From the IMG/VR virus record IMGVR_UViG_3300045988_153198: DNA of 64,000 nt; one strand, written 5' to 3'. Origin of the DNA: a virus. The notes below the pieces were generated by a model. That model worked only from the letters and a program-made list of their open reading frames with translations, had not been told where the DNA came from and ran no database searches. Within the stretch, counting starts at the first letter, position 1; each line of letters begins with the position of its first letter. This document shows positions 76 to 61,557 of the stretch, piece by piece. The position numbers were made by a program, and so were the translations under genes.

Positions 76-255
76 TTACAGAGAAACAGCACGTTTCTCA
101 ATAAGCTTTAACAATTTTGGATTATCTTTTACAAGTAAATAATTTGCAAAGGATACACCAGTAATCTTAGAAACATGACCATTAGAAGATGCAACTTCTA
201 AGGTATTATCAGGCTTCCAAGTAATGTTGGTAGACTTATTGAAATTAATATCCAT
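76..255 (-). CDS. hypothetical small protein (59 aa from ATG 255); stand-alone promoter-leader-ORF-terminator unit
   Basis: The track ORF 76..264 starts at GTG. The in-frame ATG at 255 sits 8 nt after GGGAGG (plus cctccc, 264-269). No family recognised. Confidence 0.5.
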   Translation of the reverse strand: MDINFNKSTNITWKPDNTLEVASSNGHVSKITGVSFANYLLVKDNPKLLKLIEKRAVSL

Positions 256-407
256 AACGAACACCTCCCTTCTGTATAGGGTTGTATAGTAAAGCTCTGG
301 TGGGAGAGCTGAACTAACTTAAACAGAACTAACCTAGACAGAACTTTCTGTAAGCAACTCTTAGGCAGAGGAAATTTGATGGTAGGACATCAAAAAATCC
401 TCCACTT

Positions 408-445: not shown

Positions 446-594
446 TAGCCTAATAGGAACTGCTTACAGGTTGAGAATACCTAAGACTGGACTAGGGGAG
501 GGTGGTGGGAGAGGTAAGTAGTGTTAGCGTAAATCTGAAAGCGAACAGCTTTAAGAAATCAATCTGAAAGCGTAAATCGGTAGACAGTCATATT

Positions 595-698
595 ATCAAG
601 TTATCAGAGGAGTAGGTTATCAGAGGTGTAACTTATCAGAGGGATACTGATGTAATTCATCAGAGGTGCAACTTGTCAGAAGTGCAACTTATCAGAGG
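595..698 (+). repeat. six tandem 16-bp units, consensus TG(T/C)AACTTATCAGAGG
   Basis: Units at 595-610, 611-626, 627-642, then an 8-nt gap, then 651-666, 667-682, 683-698. All are direct, and they lie about 350 bp upstream of tnsA. Confidence 0.9.
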
Positions 699-843
699 TA
701 AGGATATAGAGAATTATCTCCAAAATTCAAAAGTGGATACGACAGTTGATAGGGTAAGGTCTAAAAGTAAAGAGGATAGAACTTTTGCCTTAAAACTGAA
801 TAATCACTTTTGCCCTATGACATAGAGTATTTGCTATTATCCA

Positions 844-1028
844 TTTTTGGGAAACTCATAAATCAAGACAAAACCTCTGAAAACCCAGTAAAATCAATAC
901 TTTTAAGCAATTCCCCATTTTCCCAGAAATAATGTTTTTGGGAAGAAAAATCCCCAAAAATACGTTTTTGGGAGATTCAATCTGTTTTTGGGAACAATTT
1001 TGGGAAGTGTTACCCCATTCTGGGAATT
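844..1028. repeat. cluster of TTTTGGGAA-type motifs directly upstream of tnsA; candidate transposase-binding or operator sites
   Basis: Direct copies start near 844, 935, 965, 985 and 998, with a degenerate one at 1018. Inverted copies lie at 917-926 (degenerate) and 951-960. Three copies read (T/C)GTTTTTGGGA(A/G). Confidence 0.8.
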
Positions 1029-1051
1029 GCCAAATATCAGGAGGTGCTGCT

Positions 1052-1396
1052 ATGCGTAAGAAAGGTTACAAGGGAAGATGTGAAAAGAAGAATTTAAGTA
1101 AAAGTCAGGAAGTATGCAGAACATACGATGCAATACAATCCAACTATGCAGATATTCTTCAGAATGACAACAACATACAGGAAATCAGATGCAATGTGTT
1201 GTTAGACGGTTTATCAGAAGGAGCTTATACCTCAGACTTTGTTTGTGTCAAATCAGATGGAGATTTGATGGTCAGGGAATGTGTTTTTAGAAAGTTTCTC
1301 ACAAAGCCTATGACAGTAAAGCTTCTGGATGCTTCAAGAGATTACTGGTTAAATCATGGTGTATCAGATTGGGGGATGGTCATTGATGAAGAATAG
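1052..1396 (+). CDS. tnsA: short TnsA-like endonuclease (114 aa)
   Basis: YTSDFVCVKSDGDLMVRECVFRK...DYWLNHGVSDWGMVIDEE follows the TnsA N-domain PD-(D/E)xK pattern (YTPDF..vEvK..yW..g..f.ivte). AGGAGG precedes ATG 1052. The track start at 932 runs through the repeat array. Confidence 0.6.
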   Translation: MRKKGYKGRCEKKNLSKSQEVCRTYDAIQSNYADILQNDNNIQEIRCNVLLDGLSEGAYTSDFVCVKSDGDLMVRECVFRKFLTKPMTVKLLDASRDYWLNHGVSDWGMVIDEE

Positions 1397-3233
1397 ATTA
1401 CAAAAGAAAATTACAAAGAATCAGCTATTACAGAATGATACTCAGCTTATAAGGGTTTTGGATATAGAAGCCTACAGAGTATTTGTCATTGACTGTATCA
1501 AAAAAACTATGCCAGTCTGGACAGATGCAGAATCATTAAAAGATTATCTTCCATGTTCTGAAGATACATTACAGGAAATCACAGATACTATTCTGATTGA
1601 CCTTGATAATTTAGATTCAGAAGGAAGAAAGACAGCATATGAAAGATATACAATGATTGCCCCTTTGCTGCCTTTTGTATCAGACCAGAAAAAACGAAAA
1701 GAACTGATAAACAGCCTTGCAAATATAAACTCAGTCAGCAAACAGACAATCAGATACTACCTCTGCTTATATCTGGTTTATCAGAATATATCTATACTTA
1801 TACGCAAGCAGAGTGTGAAAGAAAGCGTTTTATCTCAGGATGAGAAGAATATGAGGTGGGCTTTAAACAAGTTCTTTTATACCAAGCACAAGAACAGTTT
1901 GCCTGTGGCATATACGCTATTACTGAAAGAAAAATATTGTGATTCACTAGGAAATCTGCTGCCTGAATATCCTTCATTTTATCAGTTCCGATACTTCTAC
2001 AGAAGAACAAAAAAGATGCAGACCTATTATATTTCAAGAGATGGGTTGAAGGACTACCAAAAAAATAACAGACCGCTGCTAGGGGATGGAATACAAGAAT
2101 ATGCTTCGTCTGTAGGTATGGGAATGTTAGATGCGACTGTGTGTGATATTTACCTTATCAATGAAGCTGGTAATTTGGTAGGCAGACCGATATTGACAGC
2201 TTGCATAGATGCCTATAGTTCTTTATGTTGTGGTTATTCTCTGTCATGGGAAGGCGGTGTGTATTCTCTCAGAGGATTGATGTTAAATATCATTTCAGAT
2301 AAACAGAAGTGGTGTAGTCAATACGGTATCAGTATTAAGAAATCACAGTGGGATGCAGACAAGCTCCCAGCAATCTTTGTAACTGATATGGGTTCTGAAT
2401 ATAAATCTGAGAACTTTGAACAGATAACAGAACTAGGAGTAACTGTGGTAAATCTTCCATCTTACAGACCCGAACTGAAAGGAGCTGTGGAGAAATTTTT
2501 TGATTTAGTACAGAATACCTACAAGCCATATTTGAAGGGAAAAGGTGTAATAGAGCCAGATTATCAAGAGAGAGGTTCGCATGATTACAGGAAGGATGCT
2601 TGCCTTACTATGGTAGATTTTGAAAAGGTCATTCTCCGATGTATCATTTATTATAACTCACAGAGGATTATAGAAAATTTCCCATATACTGAAGGAATGA
2701 TACAGAATCAGATTCAGCCATTTGCAAGCAATATCTGGGAATGGGGAAAGACACAGATAGGGGCTAATTTGATTACAGTTGATAAAGAACAGATTGTATT
2801 GACCCTTCTTCCAAGGATTACAGGTAAGTTCTCCAGATTTGGACTCAGAGTAAACAAAATGCGGTATAAGCATGAGAATTTCACAGAAAAATATCTTGCT
2901 GGTGGAGAGGTAACAGTTGCCTACAATCCAGATGATGTATCAGCGGTATGGTTGATTGACAATGGTTCTTATATTCGATTTGACTTAATAGAAAGCCGAT
3001 ATAAGGGCAAGGAATTATCAGATGTAGAAATAATGCAGAAAGGTCAGAAAGAGCTTGTAAAGGCTGCTACAGCAGATAATATACAGGCACAGATTAACCT
3101 TGCACAGTCTATAGAAATCATTGCTGCATCTGTAAATAATCCTGATAAGGTCAATATAAAATCTATCAGGAATACCAGACAGAGAGAACAGACAAAGAAT
3201 CATATTGATTATATTAGGGGGATTGAAGCATGA
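1386..3233 (+). CDS. tnsB: TnsB-like DDE transposase (Mu/rve type)
   Basis: DDE candidates are LDATVCDIY, FVTDMGSEYKS and KGAVEKFF. A Mu-transposase-C-like stretch is present (FGLRVNKMRYKHE...VTVAYNPDDVSAVWL). The start could be 1356 or 1386, and it overlaps the tnsA stop. Confidence 0.8.
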   Translation: MKNRLQKKITKNQLLQNDTQLIRVLDIEAYRVFVIDCIKKTMPVWTDAESLKDYLPCSEDTLQEITDTILIDLDNLDSEGRKTAYERYTMIAPLLPFVSDQKKRKELINSLANINSVSKQTIRYYLCLYLVYQNISILIRKQSVKESVLSQDEKNMRWALNKFFYTKHKNSLPVAYTLLLKEKYCDSLGNLLPEYPSFYQFRYFYRRTKKMQTYYISRDGLKDYQKNNRPLLGDGIQEYASSVGMGMLDATVCDIYLINEAGNLVGRPILTACIDAYSSLCCGYSLSWEGGVYSLRGLMLNIISDKQKWCSQYGISIKKSQWDADKLPAIFVTDMGSEYKSENFEQITELGVTVVNLPSYRPELKGAVEKFFDLVQNTYKPYLKGKGVIEPDYQERGSHDYRKDACLTMVDFEKVILRCIIYYNSQRIIENFPYTEGMIQNQIQPFASNIWEWGKTQIGANLITVDKEQIVLTLLPRITGKFSRFGLRVNKMRYKHENFTEKYLAGGEVTVAYNPDDVSAVWLIDNGSYIRFDLIESRYKGKELSDVEIMQKGQKELVKAATADNIQAQINLAQSIEIIAASVNNPDKVNIKSIRNTRQREQTKNHIDYIRGIEA

Positions 3234-4474
3234 TTGATTTTACAACGAAACTTCCAGAAATGAAATCAGGGAATGAACTTATATGTGCATTATCTATCAT
3301 TCCTGAATATGATGAAACCATATGCCAGCAGAACCAAGCAGTTAGATTAATGGCATTATCAGACCTGTACCAGATATATGTACCATCTCAGATGAGTATT
3401 GAAATCTATAATAAATTGTATCTTGCCTTGCTTCGTTCTATGCAAAAGAAAGGCTCTCAGATGGCTATAAAACAAAGATATGAGAACTATAAGGCAATGC
3501 AGCAGCAATCTTATAGCGGTATTCTGGGCGGTTCTGATTCATTCACAATTATCGGTACTTCAGGAATAGGTAAATCCTCTGCCATCAGCAGAGCTATATC
3601 CTTGATTACTGAAAATCGTATCATAGAAACAGACAAGCCATATACAAAGATTATCCCATGCCTGATTGTACAGTGTCCGTTTGATTCTTCAGTAAAAGGC
3701 TTGCTATTGGAAATCCTCAGAAAAGTAGATGAAGAACTGGGAACAGACCATTATATTCATGCAGTAAAATCCAGAGCTTCTACAACAGATATGCTTATAG
3801 GTGCGGTCAGCTCTATTGCATTAAATAATATTGGTATGCTGGTAGTAGATGAGATACAGAATGTTGTCAACTCCAAGAATGGAAAGAGCCTGATAGGTGC
3901 ATTGACTCAACTTATCAATAATTCGGGTATCTCTATTTGCATGGTGGGTACTCCTGAAAGTACAGTGTTTTTTGAACAGGCTATGCAGCTTGCAAGGCGG
4001 TCTGTAGGACTACAATATACAACTATGAAATATGATGAGTATTTCCAGAGCTTCTGCAAAGTGATTTTTAAATATCAATTTTTAAAAAATCATACAGAGA
4101 TAACCGCTGCTATTACAGAATGGCTATATGAACATTCTGCTGGTGTGGTTTCTGTTGTGGTATCTCTGATTCATGATGCACAGGAAATAGCAATTCTTAC
4201 AGGGAAAGAGGTTTTAAATCTGGATACTCTGAATGAAGCATACCAACAGAGATTAACATTGCTTCATGGATATATACAGCCCTCTGTGATTCAGAATAAA
4301 CCGACAACCAAAAAGAAAAAGACTGCTGCCAGTGTCAAAAAGAATCAGATACAGAGCCAGCCCAAACAGGAAAGATATTCTATCACTGAAATTGCAGAAA
4401 GAGCCAAAGCTGAGAATTTGGATGTAGTAGAATTGTTGAAAGAAGTTTATACCGTTATTGAGGTGGCAATATGA
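3230..4474 (+). CDS. tnsC: TnsC/TniB-like AAA+ ATPase
   Basis: Walker A is GTSGIGKSS and Walker B is MLVVDEIQN. There is a 4-nt overlap with tnsB and with tniQ. Confidence 0.8.
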   Translation: MIDFTTKLPEMKSGNELICALSIIPEYDETICQQNQAVRLMALSDLYQIYVPSQMSIEIYNKLYLALLRSMQKKGSQMAIKQRYENYKAMQQQSYSGILGGSDSFTIIGTSGIGKSSAISRAISLITENRIIETDKPYTKIIPCLIVQCPFDSSVKGLLLEILRKVDEELGTDHYIHAVKSRASTTDMLIGAVSSIALNNIGMLVVDEIQNVVNSKNGKSLIGALTQLINNSGISICMVGTPESTVFFEQAMQLARRSVGLQYTTMKYDEYFQSFCKVIFKYQFLKNHTEITAAITEWLYEHSAGVVSVVVSLIHDAQEIAILTGKEVLNLDTLNEAYQQRLTLLHGYIQPSVIQNKPTTKKKKTAASVKKNQIQSQPKQERYSITEIAERAKAENLDVVELLKEVYTVIEVAI

Positions 4475-5823
4475 TAACATACCTTCCTGAAATATATCCA
4501 GATGAGCTTGTATATAGTTGGTTTTGTCGGTATGCAATCCATTCAGGATATACGTCACATAAACGAGTATTACAGGAGTTGTACTGTAAAAAATCAGATA
4601 CACCGATTAAAGAATTTATTGGTAATCTCAATCCTGAAGCAAGAGAATGTATTGATAAAATGTATCCGTTGAGGGATTTAGTATTAAATCACACCATGTA
4701 TCCTCAGTATGCCAGATTCATTCCATTGGAACAAAAGAAGGATGCTTTATATAAATTGTGTTATGAGAATTGTGATGCACACCATTTATTTGCAGTTCTT
4801 CCAAGGTGTGAGAAAGAACGCTACTTGAAATATTGTCCTGTATGTGCAAGTGAGGACAGACAGAGATATGGGGAAACATATTGGCACAGAAAACACCAAA
4901 TAAGGAATATGGGGATTTGTCCAAAACATAAGTGTAAGCTTCAGGACTCCAGCGTTTCAGCTAAAAGTATGAATATATATAATTTCTCTGCTGCTGAGAT
5001 TGCTATTCCTGATTCGGAAGAATATATACCTGTTGATAATCCTTTACAGATAAGATTTGCAGAGTACACAGAACAGGTTTTTGATACTCCTGTAGATTTT
5101 GAAAAGGATGTTCCACTCAGCACTATGTTGTATTATGCCATGAAGAATACAAAATATATGAAATCAACAGGAAGATGTCGATACATGACAAAGTTTGTTT
5201 CTGACATGACACGCTTTTATGAACAAATCGAACTGAATGAGATTGCCAGTATCGGAAGGATTCAAAGGACTTTGTTATCTGGGGAAAGATACGATTTTTC
5301 TCTTACCTGTCAGATTGGTTTCTTTCTGAATATGACATCTGAAGATTTGACTGCTCCTCAGTTATCGGAAGAACAGATAAAGATAGAAGAGGAAAGCCAT
5401 TATATCAAGGGAAAGACTACACCAGATTGGGAAGAATATGACAACAAAATGTCTCTTATCTTGGAACAGGTTGCAGAAGATATTTATAGCGGTGCTGCTG
5501 ATAGCATGGGAAAGCCTGAAAAGGTAACTGAGAAATTTATATGTAGGATACTGGGAATAAAGCAGCACCAACTTGAGAATATGCCTAAAAGCAGAGCTGT
5601 ATTAGAGAGATATTCAGAATCATATCCTGAATCATGGGCTAGAAAATTGGTATGGGCTTATGAGTGGCTTGAGAACAATGAGGAAGATGTATTTTACTGG
5701 AAACATCTCAGGAAACTCACAGGAGTTAAGAAAGAGCATTTTGATGAGATTATTCCATACCTTAAAAAGTATGCAGATGAGTATGAAGTGAAAAATATCA
5801 TAAAAATAGTTATGGGAGAGTAA
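4471..5823 (+). CDS. tniQ: TniQ/TnsD-family target-selector protein
   Basis: The N-terminus LPEIYPDELVYSWFCRYAIHSGY is a TniQ-type opening. A zinc ribbon CPVC...CPKHKC follows. Confidence 0.7.
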   Translation: MITYLPEIYPDELVYSWFCRYAIHSGYTSHKRVLQELYCKKSDTPIKEFIGNLNPEARECIDKMYPLRDLVLNHTMYPQYARFIPLEQKKDALYKLCYENCDAHHLFAVLPRCEKERYLKYCPVCASEDRQRYGETYWHRKHQIRNMGICPKHKCKLQDSSVSAKSMNIYNFSAAEIAIPDSEEYIPVDNPLQIRFAEYTEQVFDTPVDFEKDVPLSTMLYYAMKNTKYMKSTGRCRYMTKFVSDMTRFYEQIELNEIASIGRIQRTLLSGERYDFSLTCQIGFFLNMTSEDLTAPQLSEEQIKIEEESHYIKGKTTPDWEEYDNKMSLILEQVAEDIYSGAADSMGKPEKVTEKFICRILGIKQHQLENMPKSRAVLERYSESYPESWARKLVWAYEWLENNEEDVFYWKHLRKLTGVKKEHFDEIIPYLKKYADEYEVKNIIKIVMGE

Positions 5824-5895
5824 TCTTAATTCTTCTTGTTTTAATAAAGCTATGATATACTTATAAGCATACGAATTAAAACAAAGGAGAGTACC

Positions 5896-6597
5896 ATGAG
5901 TTTAAAAAATAAAGAAAAGATTTCGATAATAGTTCCTATTATTGTATGTATATTGTGTTTATGTTCATGTTCTAAGAAAACACCTGATGAAAAATTGACT
6001 GATAGTTTCTTAGAGTACAGTTTGGGGAAAACTGATGGTAAATTTAATAGAGTATTTACAACATCCAACGGAACAGAAATGGTAGTGTCTGAATTACAAA
6101 AAGAAGATGCAACTTCTCCAAAAGTGATTTTATCTGTTGATATTGGAAACACCGATTTTAAAAATCAAATATATCAGTGGATAACATCTCCTGTCAATGT
6201 GCGTATGGATGATTACAGAGAATGTGCGGAAATGGTCATAAAATATGCCAAAAATGAAAACTGGGATAATGACTATTATTTATATGTCAATACCAGAAAT
6301 ATTTATGGAAGTTGTGATATTGTCTATGACTATGAGAAAGATATGATTTATATACCAAATGCAGAAAATACCTATAAAGAAATGTATGAGCAGTTTGGTA
6401 CATTCTATACGAAAGATATTACTGAAGCAGACAACGGTTCTGATTTCATAATTAACAATAATTTAGGATATTGGCAACATAACGAATTGGAAACAAAAGA
6501 TGCAACCTCATATAGCATATTTCTTCATGATGGGAAATTTTCAGAATATGAAAAAGATAAGTCTACTGTATATAGTAGAGATGATGTAAGCGAATAA
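5896..6597 (+). CDS. putative secreted lipoprotein (233 aa)
   Basis: AAGGAGAG RBS. Signal peptide IIVPIIVCILCLCSCSKK with lipobox-like cysteines. It is the only other plus-strand gene beside the tns operon. Confidence 0.6.
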   Translation: MSLKNKEKISIIVPIIVCILCLCSCSKKTPDEKLTDSFLEYSLGKTDGKFNRVFTTSNGTEMVVSELQKEDATSPKVILSVDIGNTDFKNQIYQWITSPVNVRMDDYRECAEMVIKYAKNENWDNDYYLYVNTRNIYGSCDIVYDYEKDMIYIPNAENTYKEMYEQFGTFYTKDITEADNGSDFIINNNLGYWQHNELETKDATSYSIFLHDGKFSEYEKDKSTVYSRDDVSE

Positions 6598-6612
6598 AAA
6601 ATCGTAAAAAAT

Positions 6613-6639
6613 AAGGGTGTAGCTTAATGCTACACCCTT
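6613..6639. terminator. hairpin terminator between convergent lipoprotein and ssb genes
   Basis: Stem AAGGGTGTAGC/GCTACACCCTT with a 5-nt loop. A clear T-run exists only in the minus sense (plus aaaaaat, 6605-6612). Confidence 0.65.
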
Positions 6640-6642
6640 AAA

Positions 6643-6970: not shown

Positions 6971-7002
6971 AAATAATAAAAAGGGGAAGATTACTCTTCC
7001 CC
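6971..7002 (-). terminator. intrinsic terminator ending the fibre/DGR/XkdX transcription unit
   Basis: Stem GGGGAAGA/TCTTCCCC (6983-7002) followed by a minus-sense T-run (plus aaataataaaaa, 6971-6982). Confidence 0.7.
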
Positions 7003-7026
7003 TAAACAGTGATAATCGAATACAAA

Positions 7027-7369: not shown

Positions 7370-7750
7370 TTATGCAAATACCACATCTGCAATTTCCATA
7401 ATGCAACCTTTAAGCATCTCATTATCACTTGATAAGGAACGATTTTCATTTAAAAGATATTCAATCTTTTCCTTGTCACTTAATTCTACTGGGAGTTCTG
7501 CATCTTTTTTTGCATACTCAATCCAAGTATCGAGATTGCTTTTAATTTCTTCGAGTAAACCAGTACGATATTTTAACTCAAAACGATATGAGTCATATTC
7601 GTAATATTCGGTTGTAGTTTCTTCATCACCCATAGACATTGTTTTTGTTAATGTATCTGAGATATTTGTATTGATAATAACGTCACACAGTCCAGCACTT
7701 GTTCTTTCAATAATGACTGATTCTGGTCTTTGATTGCTTTCTGCTCTCAT
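7370..7750 (-). CDS. hypothetical acidic protein (126 aa), translationally coupled to the RT
   Basis: AAGGAGG lies 9 nt upstream of ATG 7750. The ORF overlaps the RT 3' end by 44 nt. No family recognised. Confidence 0.55.
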   Translation of the reverse strand: MRAESNQRPESVIIERTSAGLCDVIINTNISDTLTKTMSMGDEETTTEYYEYDSYRFELKYRTGLLEEIKSNLDTWIEYAKKDAELPVELSDKEKIEYLLNENRSLSSDNEMLKGCIMEIADVVFA

Positions 7751-8849
7751 TTGCTACGACCTCCTTTAAAATTTTTATATTCACATTCTTTAGATATTTC
7801 ATATAAAAGAAATGTGAATCTGTATATTTAATAGTTCCTACATAAGAAAGACATCCAGCACATAAAGAAAAAGATAGCTTTTGGTGATTGGCTATCTTTT
7901 TGGATGCTTTATTATATTTTCTTCTAATTCGTAAAGAGGTTGCTCTACGAATTTCAATGTGGTCACGATAAAATTTATACCCCATAAAGTCAAGAAATCT
8001 TCCACGATGGATAGGTTTACCAACTTTTTGACTAGCCTTTTTATCAATATAGTCTAATCTAAATACTTGCCAGTTACTTTTGATTTCCAAACCAAGAGTA
8101 GCACAATATTTATCTAACTCACGTTTTACACGATGCAGTTCCTTTTTGTTTTTACCAAAAATACAACCATCATCCATATAAAAAATACAATACTTCACAC
8201 GAAGTTCTTCTTTTAAATAGTGACACACATAACTAATAACAAAATTACATAGCCATTGAGATGTAACACTACCAATAGGAAGCCCATCATCATAACTGTA
8301 AAGAATTGTTTCTGCTAACCATAATACCTTTTTGTTACGAATTTTTCTTTTCAATAAATCCATAACAATATCAGGCTTGATATGTTGATAGCATTTCTTA
8401 AAATCTATTTTCAGACAATACTTAGTATTTTTATGGTCAGTTTCCATCCATCTCTTTACAAATTTCCTTCCGTATGTACCACCACGATTAGGAATACTTG
8501 CACATTGATGAACATAAAATTGCTTCATAAAAATATCTTCGCAAGCCAATACAAAAATCCAATGATATATCTGAGATAACATACTTGTTGAAGCAATATC
8601 CCTTATCTTATGAGTAGATGTATCATATACTTGTGATACATGGTATTCATCAGGCTTTCGTTTTTCTAAAATTAAACTTCTTTGAATACGCTCTGCTAGA
8701 TAAGCAATTTTTATTTCAATAGTATCTCCCTTACACCAGTTTATTAAATTCTTTGTTTCTGCCCTATGCCACTTGCCTTCCAGAGCTTTATAAATAGCAG
8801 CAATTATGAAATTAATATCTGTAATATCTTTAGTCACATAAGATTTCAT
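7707..8849 (-). CDS. DGR reverse transcriptase
   Basis: LPIGSVTSQ (the IGxxxSQ variant) and YMDDG (8166-8180). I place the start at Met80 of the track ORF (ATG 8849) because the upstream 79 codons run through the TR. Confidence 0.85.
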   Translation of the reverse strand: MKSYVTKDITDINFIIAAIYKALEGKWHRAETKNLINWCKGDTIEIKIAYLAERIQRSLILEKRKPDEYHVSQVYDTSTHKIRDIASTSMLSQIYHWIFVLACEDIFMKQFYVHQCASIPNRGGTYGRKFVKRWMETDHKNTKYCLKIDFKKCYQHIKPDIVMDLLKRKIRNKKVLWLAETILYSYDDGLPIGSVTSQWLCNFVISYVCHYLKEELRVKYCIFYMDDGCIFGKNKKELHRVKRELDKYCATLGLEIKSNWQVFRLDYIDKKASQKVGKPIHRGRFLDFMGYKFYRDHIEIRRATSLRIRRKYNKASKKIANHQKLSFSLCAGCLSYVGTIKYTDSHFFYMKYLKNVNIKILKEVVANESRKQSKTRISHY

Positions 8850-9013
8850 TAAGTTCTTTCTTAATCTCAAAGATGTTTGAATAAAATAATATTCTACTAA
8901 CCTCTGCTGCACCGATGAATTTTTACCAAGCGGTATGGCAAGCCTACTCAATTTGAACTCCAAACTGGTAGGTAGATTGTGTATTAAGATTTTATGAAAA
9001 TTATTAAGAAGTG

Positions 9014-9126
9014 CGAGCAGCAATATTCCACCACGCATTACCGACATCGTTGTTGCAATTCCAATAGACAAGCCCATCGTTAGCACCGTTATTCAAATTA
9101 CCGCCAACGTACACGACACGCAGCCA
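9014..9126 (-). repeat. DGR template repeat (TR)
   Basis: 113-nt match to 9493-9605. In frame it reads LRVVYVGGNLNNGANDGLVYWNCNNDVGNAWWNIAAR, with AAY codons at the variable sites. Confidence 0.9.
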
Positions 9127-11860: not shown

Positions 11861-12451
11861 TTAATTCAATATACTTAGAGCATTTCCAGCATCTAATTTA
11901 TAAGGGTCAACAGTAGTAGCGTTACCACCATCAATATTTTGCACATCAAAACTTGTGGCATTACCAGCAGCTATATTTAAAACCAATCCTTCTTTTGCAG
12001 AATTAATTTCATCCAAATAACTCTGAATTTCTTTTAGCATTTGTTGTGTTGCCTGAATTAAAGAGTTGTTTACTAACTCATCAATCTCTTCACGAATTTG
12101 AACTACATGAGCTTCAGATGCAGAAATTGTAATTTCTGCTTCCTGTATATTTTTTAGTGAATCCGCAAATGATTGAGATGTTTGCTTCCATGTTGAAGAA
12201 AAAGAATCATAGAGATTCTTGGTATTTAGATAAGCATTATAAGTATTGATATATGTTTGATTAACTAAATCATAATCAAAGCTATAACCCAAATCATTCC
12301 AAGGTGTTTTTCCATCACCGATTTTTAATTTCCAAGGAGAAGCAGATTGTTGAGCTACCTCAACCGCAATCTCTCTTTCTTCTAATATAGGATTTGATTT
12401 TTTCCAGTTTTCTGCTGTATCTCCACGAATACGAATTTTAATATAAGCCAT
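11861..12451 (-). CDS. short tail-fibre-like protein (196 aa)
   Basis: GGAGG RBS before ATG 12451. The N-terminus IKIRIRGDTAENWKKSNPILEEREIAVE...KIGDGKTPWNDLGY is followed by a coiled-coil middle. The C-terminus has IAAGNA, IDGGNA and LDAGNA. Confidence 0.65.
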   Translation of the reverse strand: MAYIKIRIRGDTAENWKKSNPILEEREIAVEVAQQSASPWKLKIGDGKTPWNDLGYSFDYDLVNQTYINTYNAYLNTKNLYDSFSSTWKQTSQSFADSLKNIQEAEITISASEAHVVQIREEIDELVNNSLIQATQQMLKEIQSYLDEINSAKEGLVLNIAAGNATSFDVQNIDGGNATTVDPYKLDAGNALSILN

Positions 12452-12518
12452 AATTACCTCCATCTTATATAAAAAGAGAGTTGCCATAATAATGACAACC
12501 CTCTAGTTTTAATGAAAA

Positions 12519-15500
12519 TTATCTTGCATAAATGTCCAAATTCTTAGTCCAGTTTGTAGACACAGCATTGGCAGCAGCATAGTTGCTTAATTTTGAACAA
12601 TTGTACAATGCACCAAAATAACCAGTTGTATCAGATACAATGGCACTAAATGTGTTACCATCCCAGAAAAATGGAACAGTACCAGAGATGTTAGAACATC
12701 TATAAAATAATGCACCAATGTATTTCAACTTGGTATTCTTCAGCTCTCCATGTAAGAATCCTGAAGAAACAGATGAGATATTTGTAAATGCGAACATACC
12801 ATATGCATTAACAAGAGTATTAATACAGTTAATCATAAATGTATTAGTAATTGCTCCTGTTAAATTATCAATACCATAGAACGCTTCATTAGCATATTGT
12901 AATGCGGTCTGTTTTGCAAATAAATTCTGTGGAATACTACAAGCTGGTAATTTAAAACATTCTCTAAATATAGCAGCAATAGTAGTAAGAGCCACACATT
13001 TTGCAAACATATCAGATGCACAAATATAATCTACATCTAATGATTCATCATGATAGGCTGCATTTAATCCACGACACTTTCTAAACATACCAGAAATATC
13101 TTTCAATTCAGTATATTTATCAGTGATACTTGAAGTATAGAATATATCGTCAGGAATACCGCCTGTAAGTCCTTCACAATCATAAAATAGATAGGAAGCA
13201 CTTTTTAATTTAAGACAATCTGCCAAAAATCCTTTCTGTGTAATATTTCCTGACTCATCTTTACTTCCTGTTGGCAATTCTCCACTAAGTTCTAAGCATC
13301 CCCAGAACATATAAGAAACATCTTCCAATGTCTCTCTACATGAATTAAATAAGGATACAGGAATAGAACCCTGAAGTAATGCACAATTATAAAACAGATA
13401 TGAAGTATCTTTTAAAGAAATACATCCATCAAATAATCCTGTAGGAATAGTAAATGAATGATTACTATTAGAACCAAAGAATTGTTTTACTGTTTGTAAT
13501 TTTATACAATCTTTAAACAATTCTTTTTTAATTCCAACCATAACAGAATTATCTAAATCCGTACCACTTAACAAAGTACAGTTATCGAACATATAAGAAG
13601 CATCAATAATGTTATTCTTACATGGTTCGAAAATAGATATTATTTTTCCATTGACTTCTTTATATGGAATACAACCTTTCAATCCTTTACAATAACGGAA
13701 AGCATTAGATACATTCTGAAGTAATGGATTTCCATTAAACATATTAATTGATAAGCTGTTAGTATATTCTTTTTCTACACCGTTCTCTCTATAATAGCAA
13801 TATTTTAATGCTTCATTATTTGTACCAGAACTATGATAGAACAAATAACTTGCATCCAATAAGTTAGGAAGAGTGGCGAGAAAATCTTCAAAATATCCCT
13901 CTATTTTAGTATTACCAAAGAATCCATATAAAGTATAACGATAAGAACTCATTGGCAGATTATCTGTAATAGCTTGTCCAATTTGTTTTAAATTACTTGC
14001 ACCAATAAAGAAATCACTTTGTACATCGCCAGTTAAAGCTGTGCAATCATAGAACATTGATTTTGCAGCAGTAAGATAAGGTAATTCATTATCGTCTGAT
14101 TCTTTCACTCTAAATAACCGACTTGGCAATCCAGTTATCTTTGAACAACCAGCAAATACACCATTTGCAGTAGTCAACAATACATTTTTTGCAAAGAAAC
14201 CATTAGGTACATTTCCAGTAAGAGCTGCACAACCATAAAACATATAAGAAGCATCTTTTAAATTTACTAATGGGTCTAACATACCAGATAATCCATTTGT
14301 ATTAATCAATTTTATACAATTATGAAACATTGCATAAGTTGATGTAATGTTTGGAGTATTAGCAAAGATATTACAATTAGAATGAATAAAATTAACCAGA
14401 TTTGTACATTCACCAAACATTCTTGAAACATCAACCAAACTAACTGCTTTTTCAAATACATTCTGGTCAATAGAAACTAAATCTCTACAAACATAGAACA
14501 TATAAGAAGCATTTTGAAGTTTTGTCAGATTATCAAATAATGCTTTAGGAATCTTGGTTAATTTATTACTAATAAATGCACATGAAGCAGTAGTAATATT
14601 TGGCGTGTGTGCAAACAAATCACTAGGTATTGTCTGCTCAGTTTTACATCCCCACATAAGGTCATTAATATTCTTCAGACTTTCATCACAAGCATATAAA
14701 ACCTTTCTTGCCATAGCATATGTAGGTGTTCCACCATTACCACCATTTACATAGAACAAATAAGATATATCTGTAACACCAGCAAAATCAAATGTTAGAT
14801 TGTTAATATCTGTCAAGACATAACAATATCTAAATAAATATCTTGCCAATGATGTACATTTTAAATATCCTGTTACTCTCTGTAAAGAGTTACAACCATC
14901 AAATAATGCATCCATATTTGAAGTTACATAATTAATATTTTCAATTGCTTTGATGCTTGTACAGTTCTGAAATGAAATAGATGAAAGTTTAGATAATTGT
15001 TTCATATCACACTTTCTATCTGATTCAGCAATTTCCGCAGAACCATACTGAATAGAAATAATACTTGAACTTCGAATGTTAAGGGTTTCCAGTACATTCC
15101 AAAGTTGAGCATTACATTCTTCATCTGTTAAATTAGGATTATTGGCTTTCAAAGCAGCAACTCTATTTGCTTCATCCTGAGAAATATATTTTGGCAAACG
15201 AATATTTTTCAAAGAAGTTGAATTGCTTACATCCAATTTTTTCAATTTATACAGAGTATATAAATGCAAATCATTCATCATAGAACCATTATTGTTTGAC
15301 ATTAATAACTGATAAATATTAGGACAATTTGTTAATTCAAATGTTTCCAATACTTTACAATTACTTACATCAACACTTTGTAAATTCTTACAATTGATTG
15401 CATTAAAGATAACCACAGGTGAACCAGATAAAGACACATTTTTAATTGCAGAACAAGAATCAATAATATATTCTGTAATACTATTGCATCCATCAATATT

Positions 15501-18500
15501 CACTTCGGTTAAAAATTCAAGTGATTTAAAATATAAATTCTTAATACTTGATTTTGATAAAATAGCGGTTTGTAAATTGCTACCTTCTGCAAAGTTGACA
15601 GTTACTATTTTAGTATTTGTAATATCCAATTTTTGAATATTTTTACATCCTGTCAAATCCAAGACCTGACCACCATTAGCAGTACCAAGTTGAACAGAAC
15701 CACTACAATTCAATTCTCTAAGATATTTATTGTTACCTAAGATTAATCTACTCATACGAGATGAACCAGACAAATCAAGTTTTAAAATCTTTGTAGCATT
15801 TGCAATCGTCAAATCACGAATATTCAAATCTTCAAGTTTATTAAGTAATTGAATACCTCCAGCAGCACTAATAGTAATTTCCTTATCGGTTGCTTTTACA
15901 GGGAACGTAAATAATGTACCTTGCACTTCTCGTTTTGTATCAGGGTCAATATAAGTTGAGTTCTGTGATACATATGCAGTAATAATAGCATCACGACCAG
16001 AACCAACACTAATAGTTACATACTGAGGAGTATAGGTTAATATACCAATATAAGCTTTTAATGTACTAGCTTCATCTTTGGATTCTTCTGTATTACCTGT
16101 TAATAAATAAGCATCGGTACGTAATGAAATTTCTCCATTGATAGAATTAGTGTTATCTTCAGAATATCTATAATCAAAAATAGTATCGCAAAAATCAAGA
16201 CGTTGAGAAATCCATTGTTTAAATCTTTGCAATCTATTTCCATGTAACATTTTTAAATATTCTGTATTCGTTGCAGATGTTTGAGTAAGATATTTTGCAG
16301 CCATATCTTTATTATAGAAAATCTCACCGATTAAATCAGTTGTGTGAGCTTTATAGTATTTCATAATATAATCTACATCATAAACCGATTTCCTTAAATT
16401 TTGATAAAGCTTTTTCAACTCTTCACTATATTCTTTAGCAAAAGTATTCCAGAATTTTGAGGTTTTGGTATTGTAAGAAGCATATCTCAATTCTGTTAAA
16501 CTATTTGTTGAATAATCAGCAAATGTACCTGTAGCAACAGTAGGAGAAAGGGCTGGAATCATTTCTGCATCAACACCAATACTTTCAGTACCAGTATTTG
16601 CCAAGCCAGCTTGTGTATCCATATCATAAGGACGCACATACCATTTCTTACCATCCCATGTATCCCACATTGAGTTTTTACCAGCATTATCTACTTGACC
16701 AAACACTACCATTTGTAAATAATAAGCAGCAGCATATGTAAAGTCAAAATGCTCTGTGAAATATTCTTTAAAGGTATTATTATTTACTGCATCAGAAACA
16801 CCATTAATCATATCTCTTAATGCACCATAAGCCAGTTCTAAATCATGTTCTGTTGGATTTTCTTTATCTTCCAACTCTGAATAATCATATCTTGCTTCAA
16901 AATCGGCACTAACATAATCATATTCACTATAACTTGCCTGAAATTCGTCAAATGTTTTATAAGTGACAGCCTTTCCTTCAGGAGTTGCTTTAAAATCTTC
17001 CATAGAAAATGCATTTGCAGAAAGTCCATGTGATTTTAAATATGCTACATACGCTTCTTCATAACAATCTTCTACATAATAATTATATACGTTTCTAATT
17101 GATTCACTCAGTTTATAAAAACAACCAGCAGTATCAGAAGCGTTTGCTGTTCCTTCAAAGCTTTGACATTTGTTCTTAATTGGATTACCTTCTTCGTCAG
17201 TAAATTGTTGTCCATTTGAATCTGTTACTTTTACATCAAATCCCAATGTCTTTCCCTTTTTATCAATATTGAACATATATGAACCGACAAGAGTTAATTT
17301 TGATGTATCTTTTTCATCATCTGTATAATAAACAATAACTGGAAATCCATCAATCGCATCTTTATAACCATTTGCTTTTGCTGGACTCTGACCACCTAAA
17401 ATAGTAATTAAATCATTATAGAATTTTGCTGTAGGTGTATTATTAAGATGAGAGCTTTCCATATAATCACATTTAAGAGTAAATGTATTTTCCTTTTCCC
17501 AATCATCTTTCATTTGTACTTTAAGTTTAGAAGTATGTGCTTCGTCAGCATACAATTTTAACTTATAATTCTTTACAGGATATTGCAAAGAAGAAGTACC
17601 CTGAAGAAATACAGAAACATTCTCCCATACAGTAATTGTTCCATCTGGATTCTGAATTTCAACTACACATTCAACATATGTTTTGTTGGATGTTGCTTTA
17701 TCAGTAATAGAGTTAAGAACTTCAAAATTACTGTTATTTTCGATATTTTTTCTTTTGAATGTAATAACTGGAAGCTTATTGGTTGTTATATCATTTTTCT
17801 CTTTTAATGCATTTTGTTCTGTTAAATCATAGATAGATGAAATATAGTTCTGAAGAACCTGACTAGAATCCAAATAATGATTGTAAAGTCTAATCATTTT
17901 AATTTCACATTCACCAAAATATGATGGGATGTTTTGAACCAATGATGCATTTAACATCAGTGGATAAGCATTTCCTAAAGAATCCAAGAACTTATCATTT
18001 GTTAATGCAGTAACAGAACATAAAACACCATTGATATAAATTCTCATAGTAGGAATTGGATTCATATTTTCAATATTTGTCAAACCAACCTTTTCAAGAC
18101 TACGAATATTTCTATCAATAACAAATGTAGCGTGTACCCACTCATCTTCAGCAAAACCAAGATTTGTATTCTGAGAAGATGAACCAATATATAAATCTTC
18201 ATGTGTTACTGAAAAACCAGCGGTGTTTGTATCAACACCTTTCTGACAAGTGACAACTCTTGCTTTCATTTCTCCTACACATCTTGTTCTAAAAACAAGC
18301 TCAAGAGAATATCCTTCAGTACCATCATTAAATCCAGCTAAAGGGCAATATCTTTCGCCAGTATTCTTATTTATCATTTCACCATAAGAATTACCAGTAA
18401 ACTTCAACATCATTTCGCCAGATTCAGAATCACTCAATGATTCATCTACGTGTTTCCAACCATTTGTATTATAGTTTAAATCATGCAGTTTGATTTGATA

Positions 18501-20174
18501 CTGTGAATATTCCGAAACTTTGTTATTCCACTGGTCTGGATTTTCGACATTATTTCTCATATCATTTGCATCAAACCACGCAATCAGATTCTCCATAACA
18601 GGAGTAACACCGTCATAACTAGCTGCTTCAACTGTAAAATATCCCTCGGCAGTATCTACAGATGATTTCTGACTATCCAAAGTATATGACTTCATAGAAT
18701 ATTTATATGTACCAGCAGCAAGCTTACCAACAAACCAGTATGATGTAACACCAACTGTAGATTGCACACCAGCGTCAGGTGTTTTTGCATATTCAGTCAA
18801 AGTTTCATTAGAAGCACCATAGTTTGAAACCTTGTATAATGTACCTTTCATTAATAATAATGAAGTATTTTTACCACTTACACGATAAGGAATACTAAGA
18901 TACATATTTGTATTGATTCCATTCGGGTCTAACTCTGATACAATAGAAATTTCTCCATTTGACAAAACATTGATAGAATATGATAATGCTGAAGAAACCA
19001 ATGTATTTCCAGAAGCATCATCAATACTTGTTCCTGTATATGCCTGTAAAGTAATTGTATATGTTCCACGTTTCTTTAATCCAACATACCAAGTTCCTGT
19101 TTTTGCATAACTACCTGTATTGATAATTTCTTGAGAAGAAGTGCCATCATCCTTCATAATACGGCATAGGATTTTTACAACCTGAGAAGTATCACTACAC
19201 TTTACAGAGTATGGCACATTAATAGCAGTTGTTTCCTCAAAAACTGTATTATTAATAATAGAACCAAAGGTACTTGTTAATGTCAGACCTCCGCATACTA
19301 CTGTAAATAACAAATCTTCTGGAGCAGCAATTCCAAGATAGTCTGCACCACTAATTCTATATGTAGAAGTTCCTTCTGTAGTCAGAGTTCCTAAATCAAT
19401 GGCAATCGTACCTTTAGGAGAAGTAATTGTTTTAAGTAAAACATTGTCTTTATAAACTCTCAGTGTACAATCACCATAGGTTGTAGATGTAAAACGAACA
19501 AAAATAATTGCATTATCGCCAACACTATAATAAATTTTCTTTCCTTGTGGGAAATCAGAAGTATATGAAAGCTCTGGAACATTACCTCCACCACCGCCTG
19601 AACCACTAGAGAAAATTTCCCATCCAGTATTATCAATAGTACCAATTAACTGATATGTTTTATTGTTATTTGAATCCTCATCGTCTGTAACAACAACTAA
19701 CATACCAATTCTTCTATCGGACTCTAAAATAGCATCACGTTCTTCGATAGTGTCAACAATCTTTAAATACCCACTATCCTTTTTTAATCGTTCAAATACT
19801 CTTTCAAGATAAGCAGAAGAGTAAGTAGTGCTTGCACTTGACTCCACATCATTAATACCAATTTTGTCTGCAATAATACCATTTACCGCAGCAATAGCAT
19901 CCTGAATCTGTTGCAACTGAGTATTTGTTGTAGATTCGACATATTCAACTAATTCTGTCAATTGTTTTATATTCAAATCATATTTTTCAATTGTTGTCTG
20001 TAGAGCATTAATATCAATAACACAAGTTAAATCTTTCCATTTGGTTTTTCCATCACCAAATTTAATCATAAACTTGTCTGTACAAAATGACATTTCGCCT
20101 TCTTTAAGAACAGGATTTACCTTTTCCCAATTAGCTTTTGTGTCTCTACGGATTCTAATACTAACACAAGCCAT
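12519..20174 (-). CDS. giant tail fibre/adhesin (2551 aa): anchor - beta-rich - LamG-like - CotH-like - BspA-type LRR
   Basis: N-terminal anchor motif VSIRIRRDTKANWEKVNPVLKEGEMSF...KFGDGKTKWKDL. LamG-like region: LELVFRTRC...WVHATFVIDRN...MRIYINGVL. CotH-like region: KNYKLKL...FTLKCDYMESSH...VDNAGKNSMWDTWDGKKWYVRPYDMDTQAG. C-terminal ~1150 aa of repeats of the type DASYMF.gC..LtG.iP..lF. Confidence 0.8.
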   Translation of the reverse strand: MACVSIRIRRDTKANWEKVNPVLKEGEMSFCTDKFMIKFGDGKTKWKDLTCVIDINALQTTIEKYDLNIKQLTELVEYVESTTNTQLQQIQDAIAAVNGIIADKIGINDVESSASTTYSSAYLERVFERLKKDSGYLKIVDTIEERDAILESDRRIGMLVVVTDDEDSNNNKTYQLIGTIDNTGWEIFSSGSGGGGGNVPELSYTSDFPQGKKIYYSVGDNAIIFVRFTSTTYGDCTLRVYKDNVLLKTITSPKGTIAIDLGTLTTEGTSTYRISGADYLGIAAPEDLLFTVVCGGLTLTSTFGSIINNTVFEETTAINVPYSVKCSDTSQVVKILCRIMKDDGTSSQEIINTGSYAKTGTWYVGLKKRGTYTITLQAYTGTSIDDASGNTLVSSALSYSINVLSNGEISIVSELDPNGINTNMYLSIPYRVSGKNTSLLLMKGTLYKVSNYGASNETLTEYAKTPDAGVQSTVGVTSYWFVGKLAAGTYKYSMKSYTLDSQKSSVDTAEGYFTVEAASYDGVTPVMENLIAWFDANDMRNNVENPDQWNNKVSEYSQYQIKLHDLNYNTNGWKHVDESLSDSESGEMMLKFTGNSYGEMINKNTGERYCPLAGFNDGTEGYSLELVFRTRCVGEMKARVVTCQKGVDTNTAGFSVTHEDLYIGSSSQNTNLGFAEDEWVHATFVIDRNIRSLEKVGLTNIENMNPIPTMRIYINGVLCSVTALTNDKFLDSLGNAYPLMLNASLVQNIPSYFGECEIKMIRLYNHYLDSSQVLQNYISSIYDLTEQNALKEKNDITTNKLPVITFKRKNIENNSNFEVLNSITDKATSNKTYVECVVEIQNPDGTITVWENVSVFLQGTSSLQYPVKNYKLKLYADEAHTSKLKVQMKDDWEKENTFTLKCDYMESSHLNNTPTAKFYNDLITILGGQSPAKANGYKDAIDGFPVIVYYTDDEKDTSKLTLVGSYMFNIDKKGKTLGFDVKVTDSNGQQFTDEEGNPIKNKCQSFEGTANASDTAGCFYKLSESIRNVYNYYVEDCYEEAYVAYLKSHGLSANAFSMEDFKATPEGKAVTYKTFDEFQASYSEYDYVSADFEARYDYSELEDKENPTEHDLELAYGALRDMINGVSDAVNNNTFKEYFTEHFDFTYAAAYYLQMVVFGQVDNAGKNSMWDTWDGKKWYVRPYDMDTQAGLANTGTESIGVDAEMIPALSPTVATGTFADYSTNSLTELRYASYNTKTSKFWNTFAKEYSEELKKLYQNLRKSVYDVDYIMKYYKAHTTDLIGEIFYNKDMAAKYLTQTSATNTEYLKMLHGNRLQRFKQWISQRLDFCDTIFDYRYSEDNTNSINGEISLRTDAYLLTGNTEESKDEASTLKAYIGILTYTPQYVTISVGSGRDAIITAYVSQNSTYIDPDTKREVQGTLFTFPVKATDKEITISAAGGIQLLNKLEDLNIRDLTIANATKILKLDLSGSSRMSRLILGNNKYLRELNCSGSVQLGTANGGQVLDLTGCKNIQKLDITNTKIVTVNFAEGSNLQTAILSKSSIKNLYFKSLEFLTEVNIDGCNSITEYIIDSCSAIKNVSLSGSPVVIFNAINCKNLQSVDVSNCKVLETFELTNCPNIYQLLMSNNNGSMMNDLHLYTLYKLKKLDVSNSTSLKNIRLPKYISQDEANRVAALKANNPNLTDEECNAQLWNVLETLNIRSSSIISIQYGSAEIAESDRKCDMKQLSKLSSISFQNCTSIKAIENINYVTSNMDALFDGCNSLQRVTGYLKCTSLARYLFRYCYVLTDINNLTFDFAGVTDISYLFYVNGGNGGTPTYAMARKVLYACDESLKNINDLMWGCKTEQTIPSDLFAHTPNITTASCAFISNKLTKIPKALFDNLTKLQNASYMFYVCRDLVSIDQNVFEKAVSLVDVSRMFGECTNLVNFIHSNCNIFANTPNITSTYAMFHNCIKLINTNGLSGMLDPLVNLKDASYMFYGCAALTGNVPNGFFAKNVLLTTANGVFAGCSKITGLPSRLFRVKESDDNELPYLTAAKSMFYDCTALTGDVQSDFFIGASNLKQIGQAITDNLPMSSYRYTLYGFFGNTKIEGYFEDFLATLPNLLDASYLFYHSSGTNNEALKYCYYRENGVEKEYTNSLSINMFNGNPLLQNVSNAFRYCKGLKGCIPYKEVNGKIISIFEPCKNNIIDASYMFDNCTLLSGTDLDNSVMVGIKKELFKDCIKLQTVKQFFGSNSNHSFTIPTGLFDGCISLKDTSYLFYNCALLQGSIPVSLFNSCRETLEDVSYMFWGCLELSGELPTGSKDESGNITQKGFLADCLKLKSASYLFYDCEGLTGGIPDDIFYTSSITDKYTELKDISGMFRKCRGLNAAYHDESLDVDYICASDMFAKCVALTTIAAIFRECFKLPACSIPQNLFAKQTALQYANEAFYGIDNLTGAITNTFMINCINTLVNAYGMFAFTNISSVSSGFLHGELKNTKLKYIGALFYRCSNISGTVPFFWDGNTFSAIVSDTTGYFGALYNCSKLSNYAAANAVSTNWTKNLDIYAR

Positions 20175-38463: not shown

Positions 38464-38498
38464 AAAATAAAAAGCGATATGGATTTACTCCATATCGC
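38464..38498 (-). terminator. intrinsic terminator overlapping the integrase stop codon
   Basis: 10-bp stem GCGATATGGA/TCCATATCGC with a 5-nt loop, then minus-sense TTTTTATTTT. Confidence 0.65.
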
Positions 38499-61282: not shown

Positions 61283-61345
61283 TCGCCAAGAAAGATAATA
61301 TATTTCACTATCAAATAATCACATTGTAGGTAAAACGCAATAGCT

Positions 61346-61362
61346 GGTACAAATCTTGTACC
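61346..61362. promoter_or_regulatory. operator-like palindrome O1 (GGTACAA-ATC-TTGTACC)
   Basis: Perfect 7-3-7 inverted repeat. The 18-mer AGCTGGTACAAATCTTGT recurs at 61385-61402. Confidence 0.65.
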
Positions 61363-61388
61363 TGCTTTTTCTCAAGGTATGAAAAGCT

Positions 61389-61405
61389 GGTACAAATCTT
61401 GTCAC
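61389..61405. promoter_or_regulatory. operator-like site O2 (GGTACAAATCTTGTCAC)
   Basis: Second copy, with two changes in the right arm. A looser third copy, GGTCAAAAATCTTGTTGCC, lies at 61475-61493. Confidence 0.55.
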
Positions 61406-61519
61406 GTTTTTGCAGTTCTAAACATATAAGATACCTATTACAATAAGAATAGTTATCTCTCTGGCGAGAGATGAGGTCAAAAATCTTGTTGCCATGTGAC
61501 ATTAAAAGTGATGCCTAAA

Positions 61520-61557
61520 ATTATTATACGAGATTTTTCTCAAATTTAGGAAGTAAT
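61520..61557 (-). promoter_or_regulatory. conserved bipartite promoter-like element (copy B) reading leftward into the early operon
   Basis: Minus-sense ATTACTTCCTA-N13-TCTCGTATAATAAT. The three operator-like sites lie between it and the first gene. Confidence 0.55.

Follow-up and report, generated by a model that had tools for sequence, protein, structure and literature searches.

Tn7-type operon and its protein products

The DNA considered here, a stretch of 64,000 nucleotides (the window) from IMG/VR virus record IMGVR_UViG_3300045988_153198, is phage DNA with portal and terminase genes, and it carries near its left end four plus-strand genes in the same order as those of Tn7, tnsA-tnsB-tnsC-tniQ. 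The listing of open reading frames (ORFs) places these genes at 1052-1396, 1356/1386-3233, 3230-4474 and 4471-5823, with overlapping stops and starts. An initial description made from the letters alone (hereafter the sequence-only reading) had interpreted the block as a Tn7-like operon lying within phage DNA and having only one recognisable end. The operon itself is borne out by the overlapping ORFs, by Pfam and by matches to Tn7 protein structures, whereas the view of its ends is not: both ends lie upstream of tnsA, where they bound a 1.8-kb cassette, and the partner of the end seen in the window falls outside it. The four genes are as follows.

1052-1396, plus strand: predicted short TnsA, 114 aa, catalytic domain only (AlphaFold model, PDB structure match, deep profile)
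1386-3233, plus strand: TnsB, DDE transposase, 615 aa (Tn7 TnsB 7pik; Pfam Mu-transpos_C)
3230-4474, plus strand: TnsC, AAA+ regulator, 414 aa (Tn7 TnsC 8glu; Pfam TniB)
4471-5823, plus strand: TniQ/TnsD-type target selector of the ppdK-associated type, 450 aa (Tn7 TnsD 8glu_X; Pfam TniQ)

The Pfam scan places Mu-transpos_C on TnsB, TniB/AAA_22 on TnsC (PF05621, 7e-14) and TniQ on the fourth ORF (PF06527, 2e-18), and precomputed domain matches add HTH_TnsB to TnsB. Among solved structures, TnsB matches Tn7 TnsB (7pik, E 3e-41), with D, D and E as the residues aligned to the catalytic triad; TnsC matches Tn7 TnsC (8glu, E 6e-20) and contains the Walker A motif GxSGxGKS and the Walker B motif VVDEIQ; and the fourth ORF matches Tn7 TnsD (8glu_X, E 3e-19) over its N-terminal TniQ domain. 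The sequence-only reading had proposed profile searches that included PF08722 for TnsA, but the 114-aa protein has no match to this profile and its family carries no Pfam, NCBIfam or PHROG name, so that this assignment rests on a structure model and a deep profile.

The 114-aa protein belongs to a family of short proteins comprising 1810 clusters at 90% identity and 733 at 50%. An AlphaFold model built from a diverse alignment of 36 sequences reached a predicted local distance difference test (pLDDT) score of 96, and its top three PDB matches are all Tn7 TnsA (E 3e-5, template-modelling score 0.80); it supersedes a first model from a shallow alignment (pLDDT 60), which had returned meaningless matches. 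The profile of the same 36-sequence alignment matches TnsA 1f1z (E 0.004) and pairs D62 with D114 of Tn7 TnsA, E76 with Q130, and V78 with the catalytic K132. The TnsA triad (E63, D114 and K132 in Tn7) is incomplete: D62 is invariant, the equivalent of E63 is not conserved, and no conserved lysine occupies the V78 position across the family. The model thus supports a TnsA fold lacking the catalytic lysine, a loss that suggests that the nuclease activity has disappeared and that the 5' strands are probably not cut.

The sequence-only reading had also considered that the module might be decaying. When the window is compared with L008, so that two phage-borne copies are set side by side, the ratios of nonsynonymous to synonymous substitution rates (dN/dS) of the four genes are 0.11, 0.04, 0.06 and 0.14, which indicates that the module is maintained under purifying selection and is not decaying.

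The surroundings of the operon are those of a phage. From 6643 to 61282 the ORFs lie on the minus strand, as previously described, and include portal, large terminase, exonuclease and tyrosine recombinase genes. Contigs from the human gut with an identical TnsC extend the window leftwards, and this extension encodes, on the plus strand, RlaP, an ADP-ribosylglycohydrolase, a CCA-adding enzyme, ThyA, DHFR, DUF1653 and a guanylate kinase; with these nucleotide-metabolism genes, phage DNA is present on both sides of the block. Contigs are circularly permuted around the tns module. The promoter element that the sequence-only reading had placed in both the left flank and the far part of the window recurs as stated, with the shared motif at approximately 406-445 and at 61519-61560. 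Its statement that no cas genes accompany tniQ likewise stands: cas domains are absent among the Pfam matches of neighbouring genes, and no family of CRISPR repeats exceeds the Rfam threshold on L001, L012 and other contigs, no dedicated CRISPR finder having been run.

Transposon ends upstream of tnsA

The region upstream of tnsA contains the following elements; coordinates preceded by L001 refer to contig L001, which reaches left of the window.

L001:806-853, approximately 984 nt left of window base 1: outer inverted repeat, 58 nt after gmk and directly behind a consensus phage promoter
1-822, plus strand: right-hand 822 nt of an approximately 1.8-kb mini-transposon cassette (inverted repeat pair; identity to solo cassettes)
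76-264, minus strand: cassette cargo ORF, 62 aa, also found with the cassette at chromosomal sites next to ppdK (98-100% identity)
598-698, plus strand: 16-nt repeat (..ACTTATCAGAGG) in six copies, within the cassette near its inner end
775-822, minus strand: inner inverted repeat, two 24-nt TnsB-type units ending ...TTTTGCCCTATGACA, with the tip ...ATGACA-3' at 822 (top two matches of the position weight matrix (PWM) in the window)
823-1051, plus strand: 5-nt spacer TAGAG, then the TTTTTGGGAA array, then the tnsA ribosome-binding site

The inner repeat (L001:2562-2609, equivalent to 775-822 of the window) has its outer partner 1.76 kb upstream. The tips of both repeats face outwards, away from each other, which means that the pair bounds a short segment and leaves the tns genes outside it, the operon beginning 230 nt beyond the inner tip. 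Such a pair occurs upstream of tnsA in about 30 distinct family members, with each repeat consisting of two or three 24-nt units. In all family members the order is outer repeat, terminator hairpin, inner repeat, 5-nt spacer, TTTTTGGGAA array and tnsA. A promoter reads into the outer repeat and the terminator lies inside the cassette. The outer repeat starts T(G/A)TC..AGGGCAA, the inner repeat is its reverse complement and ends ..TTGCCC...GACA, and the junction between the inner tip and the tns genes (GACA-TGGTG-ATATT) is shared by elements located after guaA and after ppdK. Motif positions are kept in the approximately 30 elements, and the two arms of a single element frequently diverge in their spacers; conserved motifs separated by spacers without covariation point to protein-binding sites rather than an RNA stem. 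For this reason, and with no Rfam match, an RNA stem or small RNA formed from the repeat pair was rejected.

The TTTTTGGGAA array comprises five plus-strand copies (sites at 843, 934, 964, 984 and 996, spanning 842-1006) and two inverted ones. It resembles the TTTTAGGGCAA core of the 24-nt units, its position upstream of tnsA is conserved in all relatives, and the motif is found nowhere else in them, features that would suit TnsB operator or assembly sites. The 16-nt repeats vary in copy number among cassette copies and could serve as a recombination or regulatory site. The sequence-only reading had taken these dense repeats as a Tn7 right end and had found no inverted copy of either family. 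Both families are real, but they do not form the boundary of the element, its true end being the 24-nt units at 775-822, a third repeat that this reading had missed. No further cluster of either motif exists in the window; the two inverted TTTTTGGGAA copies lie at 919-930 and 951-960.

The absence of a conventional far end, already remarked upon in that reading, extends from the window to related loci. No left end was found by means of inverted TTTTTGGGAA copies, shared 9-mers, BLAST-short or PWM searches in the window and approximately 80 related loci. PWM scans revealed no third 24-nt repeat site in the 64-kb window, nor was one present within 10 kb downstream in any related locus. Two apparently complete circles, a 122.8-kb phage contig and the 11.6-kb contig L019, have one repeat arm at each contig end and contain no third site.

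Several other candidates for ends or attachment sites were discarded. A weak PWM match at 6986-7009 (minus strand) lies at a homology break with L209/L210 and overlaps a terminator hairpin, and a family-wide PWM no longer detects it. Where near-identical bacterial elements lose homology, the breaks fall inside cargo genes and reveal no end, contig ends near tnsA are better explained by assembly breaks at inverted repeats than by genome termini, and the phage promoter/leader (CAAGGTT) is unsupported in the window as an attachment site.

A mobile mini-transposon cassette

The segment between the two repeats is a transposon in its own right that moves alone. Gut metagenomes contain it as solo and tandem copies behind full-length ppdK, in DNA of higher G+C content. 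Positions 62-512 and 669-824 of the window are 94-95% identical (95% for 62-512) to solo cassettes located after ppdK in bacterial DNA. With the inner 21-mer of the window as query, a metagenome scan returned 14 contigs. The donor arrangement of inner tip, TAGAG and tnsA is present in 5 of the 14, with gmk upstream in L218 and L223. In L212/L216, L215, L221 and L222, the cassette is situated 9-15 nt after the ppdK stop codon and carries one or both cargo ORFs (92-100% identity), and no tns genes lie beside it; G+C content beyond the cassette is clearly higher in L212/L216. Five metagenome contigs change in sequence exactly after the ACA of the inner tip. Perfect 5-bp duplications surround the cassettes (TATAA, GACAA and TGTTG, and in the L213 tandem array AAATT), 4-5 nt lie between tandem cassettes, and cassettes of 0.4-2.9 kb are shared by phage and chromosome.

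The left flank of the window at 76-445, which the sequence-only reading had regarded as native phage DNA, is cargo of the mini-transposon, since the same cassette occurs in bacterial chromosomes after ppdK. This cargo includes a second ORF (71 aa) to the left of the window, and the ORF at 76-264 has no Pfam or PHROG match. The cassette of the phage circle lacks a duplication (CTCCA on the left, TAGAG on the right), as expected of a donor regenerated by recombination between the two cassette copies of a cointegrate.

Target genes and TniQ types

Relatives of the operon occupy 66 loci in the genomes of bacteria of the Oscillospiraceae, Lachnospiraceae and Negativicutes, including the complete chromosome of Sporomusa ovata (NZ_CP146301.1). 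In these bacteria the block begins 5-20 nt beyond a guaA or ppdK stop codon, always in one orientation. The TniQ of the window is 53-56% identical over its full length to ppdK-linked TniQ proteins and 29-35% identical to guaA-linked ones, whereas TnsA, TnsB and TnsC display no such split by target gene. In L009, TnsA and TnsC are 98% and 91% identical to those of the window, yet TniQ is of the other type; across L009 and L019, TnsA and TnsC are 88-98%, TnsB 83-94% and TniQ 31-32% identical to the window proteins, so that the selector is exchanged as a module. L009 also encodes ArdC and a serine resolvase.

Beyond bacterial genomes, the operon follows ThyA-DHFR in other large viral contigs of 120-220 kb, and it is also carried by small circle-like contigs, for example the 11.6-kb L019. 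A third phage-associated clade of the module, on viral contigs of 100-211 kb (L109, L111, L123, L134, L160, L165, L176 and L187), shares with the window 54% identity in TnsA, 57% in TnsB, 48% in TnsC and 28% in TniQ, and has the same arrangement of promoter, CAACAAGGTT leader and outer repeat. Searches of GenBank phages and PLSDB plasmids returned no close relative and only Tn7 itself at approximately 30%, and a survey of the searchable literature turned up no account of phage genomes with Tn7-type genes and none in which ppdK serves as a target for Tn7.

Junctions between whole replicons and host DNA

The left junction, consisting of the host gene stop, outer tip, cassette, inner tip and tns genes, is the rule in bacterial genomes including that of S. 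ovata, and it also occurs in L224 and in L219 (Ga0129310_1002900), where 11 kb of host DNA precede it. In L217 (ERZ827117 NODE_3192), the end of ppdK and a cassette are followed by genes whose products are nearly identical to those of the window phage (TnsA 98%, TnsB 96%, TnsC 97%, TniQ 94%, SSB 99%, orf97 98% and orf126 98%); judged by these identities, L217 would be the phage of the window adjoining ppdK. The right junction is present in L172 (IMGVR_UViG_3300029253_000329), which matches the L012 phage at 93% identity over 7 kb as far as the inner tip and then continues into galactokinase (galK), with G+C content shifting at the tip from 0.325 to 0.45. A complete cassette is located at each junction and the free forms hold only one, which is the structure expected of a cointegrate produced by replicative transposition from a circular donor.

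Proposed route of integration and alternative explanations

A single mechanism could join the gene identities, end structure, exact tips, 5-bp duplications and ppdK site with the correspondence of TniQ type to target gene and with the left and right junctions, each seen singly: it is reasonably probable that the cassette undergoes replicative transposition targeted by TniQ and that the entire phage circle is thereby fused into the chromosome. In this scheme, TniQ, the TnsD homologue of the ppdK-associated type, would recognise the 3' end of host ppdK, TnsC would bring in TnsB, and TnsB would join both cassette tips to the DNA 9-15 nt after the ppdK stop codon, generating the 5-bp duplication. 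With a short TnsA that lacks the catalytic lysine, the 5' strands would probably stay uncut, and replicative transposition from the circular phage donor would then yield a cointegrate in the order ppdK, cassette, tnsABCQ, whole phage, cassette and host DNA, that is, a prophage between two direct cassette copies. Recombination between the copies would free a phage circle with one cassette and leave a solo cassette at ppdK. Tn7-type elements without TnsA cutting are reported to form cointegrates (bioRxiv 10.1101/2024.11.13.623437). The anatomy is firm and unusual, and the integration mechanism, including the replicative route and the cointegrate as the lysogenic state, is well motivated but inferred.

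The broader generalisation, which stands at about even chances, is that a widely distributed group of gut Clostridia phages of 120-220 kb lysogenises by TnsD-type targeted replicative Tn7 transposition of a mini-cassette and that plasmid-like circles and those resembling integrative and conjugative elements (ICEs) use the same module. The tns genes would lie outside the ends, a nuclease-dead mini-TnsA would be kept, and the whole replicon would be fused after ppdK or guaA, a route distinct from integrases and from Mu. Of the possibilities offered by the sequence-only reading, a phage lifestyle driven by Tn7 machinery comes closest to the evidence, but its proposed Mu-like geometry does not hold, as the ends are not at the phage genome termini.

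Several observations weigh against the proposed fusion of the phage circle. The two junctions of an integrated phage were never found together on a single contig, that on the left and that on the right stemming from different relatives, and in chromosomal elements the 10-kb flanks never extended as far as a second, distal cassette. Because phage and chromosome have the cassette as a common repeat, contigs such as L217 (which holds only 95 nt of ppdK) or L172 could be chimeric joins. In addition, the 168-kb viral contig L230 (IMGVR_UViG_3300045988_157637) has a ppdK 3' fragment of approximately 40 nt and a cassette with an AAATT duplication, demonstrating that ppdK fragments can reside on mobile DNA. 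Two 80% relatives, L209 (133 kb) and L210 (171 kb), abut ppdK in the same orientation without cassette, tns genes or SSB: their phage end beside orf97 adjoins the 3' end of a host-like ppdK that shares 92% identity with a Blautia contig, and the place of 5896-6597 is taken by another gene for a secreted protein. These two may be deletion derivatives or products of a tyrosine recombinase/integrase route to the same site. The phage also encodes a tyrosine integrase at 38485-39555 (minus strand; Phage_integrase, PHROG integrase), amid structural genes and far from tns, which could act in cointegrate resolution or provide a separate integration route. Finally, TnsA may still cut, given that D62 and E76 are conserved and that the invariant K12 or K17 might replace the missing lysine.

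At L230:1300-1950, the ppdK 3' fragment (..LAAAQAAIAEKAN*) is fused to unrelated sequence and followed by the cassette with AAATT and then by a second, degenerate cassette; it may represent a decoy attachment site on a viral or mobile contig.

Among the alternatives, the one that survives best, unlikely as it is, treats the phage as donor or vector only: the system would place a small two-gene cassette at ppdK, and cointegrates would be short-lived, with no prophage kept in this way. Such a view fits the conserved cargo ORFs of the cassette, the tyrosine integrase of the phage and the predominance, among the chromosomal copies found, of solo or tandem cassettes that have no tns genes beside them. 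It is harder to reconcile with L217 and L172, which join phage DNA to host-type DNA exactly at the cassette tips, and with the many bacterial genomes that stably keep cassette, tns genes and cargo after guaA or ppdK; moreover, cut-and-paste transposition out of the phage would break the phage genome.

A rather improbable alternative is an ordinary passenger Tn7-like transposon residing in a phage, with the region upstream of tnsA as its right end and a left end that has been lost, cannot be recognised or falls outside the window; the neighbouring cassette would be an unrelated miniature inverted-repeat transposable element (MITE). The lack of a left end in 64 kb is compatible with this explanation, as are the right-end-like TTTTTGGGAA sites that begin 5-20 nt after the cassette tip and the same 4-5 nt that separate tandem cassettes. 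The junction of inner tip and tns genes is nevertheless kept in both guaA- and ppdK-type elements, which argues against an independent MITE insertion, and exactly one cassette occupies that place in every family member. Complete circles, both small and large, hold no other end, and the genes are under strong purifying selection.

It is scarcely credible that this is a Mu-like transposable phage, with a left and a right end around its whole genome and with transposition as its means of replication and integration: TnsB and TnsC are homologous to MuA and MuB and the module lies at the join of two gene blocks, but both ends are adjacent and point outwards from a short cassette, a geometry that already contradicts this idea, and phage DNA flanks both sides, the contigs are circularly permuted around the module and a large terminase is present.

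Relation to known transposition systems

The closest counterpart is Tn7 itself (TnsABC+D, attTn7 downstream of glmS), which provides the best sequence and structure matches of all four proteins and the same gene order. Further likenesses are an oriented insertion at a conserved gene that a TnsD-type protein selects, a few nucleotides beyond its stop codon, several transposase sites per end, T(G/A)T...ACA tips and a 5-bp duplication. The differences concern the proteins, the targets and the architecture: the phage TnsA is a 114-aa catalytic domain without an equivalent of K132, the phage TnsC, at 414 aa, is without the C-terminal part, ppdK or guaA serves as target, and both ends are upstream of tnsA with the tns genes outside the element. 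Two defining Tn7-like features thus fail, namely a complete TnsA triad and a location of the genes between the ends, and the module is not an ordinary member of the group.

Similarity to replicative systems that lack TnsA, namely Tn5053/Tn402 and type V-K CRISPR-associated transposons, lies in the expected TnsB-only cleavage, Shapiro intermediate and donor-target cointegrate. Those elements, by contrast, carry their genes between the ends, and their cointegrates are by-products that are resolved (TniR) or tolerated, whereas the phage cointegrate appears to be the purpose, a TnsA-fold protein is kept and no resolvase is linked to the module in the phage. Telomeric Tn7-like transposons of Streptomyces and cyanobacteria have unconventional ends and keep a TnsA with a deviating active site that favours replicative outcomes (Hsieh et al., bioRxiv 10.1101/2024.11.13.623437). 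The phage module resembles them in its unconventional ends and deviant TnsA active site, but they combine one end with a telomere on linear replicons, and here two adjacent ends occur on circular phage or plasmid-like replicons.

Outside the Tn7 group, IS26 translocatable units offer a parallel, as a circular molecule bearing a single copy of a small element is fused into a target, where two direct copies then flank it. However, the IS26 transposase is encoded inside the element and has no specific site, whereas a four-protein Tn7 machine located outside the element is directed here to ppdK. Phage Mu likewise uses a MuA/TnsB-type DDE transposase and an AAA+ partner for chromosome entry, but its ends are at the genome termini and, without a target selector, its integration is almost random.

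If the proposed mechanism is correct, it would constitute a third phage route into the chromosome besides site-specific recombinases and Mu-type transposition, in which Tn7 machinery has been rearranged to move a whole replicon and not only itself. It would also explain the one-ended appearance of these elements and the piled-up small cassettes after ppdK in gut Clostridia. Furthermore, it would represent a compact, protein-guided, site-specific system for DNA of more than 100 kb, with TnsA, TnsB, TnsC and TniQ of 114, 615, 414 and 450 aa as its parts. The phage module would also provide a natural test of TnsA function without its lysine.

Additional features of the phage genome

Directly downstream of the operon, a lipoprotein-like gene of 233 aa is located at 5896-6597 (plus strand). 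Another gene occupies this position in L206, a relative of 98.5% identity, and in the 80% relatives L209/L210, and the lipoprotein-like gene is probably a variable phage gene outside the tns module.

A reverse transcriptase (RVT_1) is encoded at 7707-9086 (minus strand), with an Rfam RT-18 RNA just upstream at approximately 8854-8935 (minus strand; L001:10641-10722). Mtd_N matches are distributed downstream of it over 11861-20174 (minus strand). Taken together, these features look like a diversity-generating retroelement acting on tail-fibre-like proteins, and several contigs break in this region. Two giant ORFs are present on the minus strand, one of 3110 aa at 29070-38402 and one of 2551 aa at 12519-20174, the latter being among those with Mtd_N. 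In another tns-carrying viral contig, an Rfam RT-2 RNA (L018:2843-3069, 128 bits) adjoins a reverse transcriptase.

Near the right end of the window, the 2.5 kb from 61300 to 63840 contain no ORF of at least 90 aa except one short frame, and the strand composition is first G/T-rich and then C/A-rich. Two near-identical promoters of the form TTGACAACTACA..TA(A/G)TAT are located at approximately 63300 and 63465, and a promoter of the same type reads into the outer repeat of the cassette.

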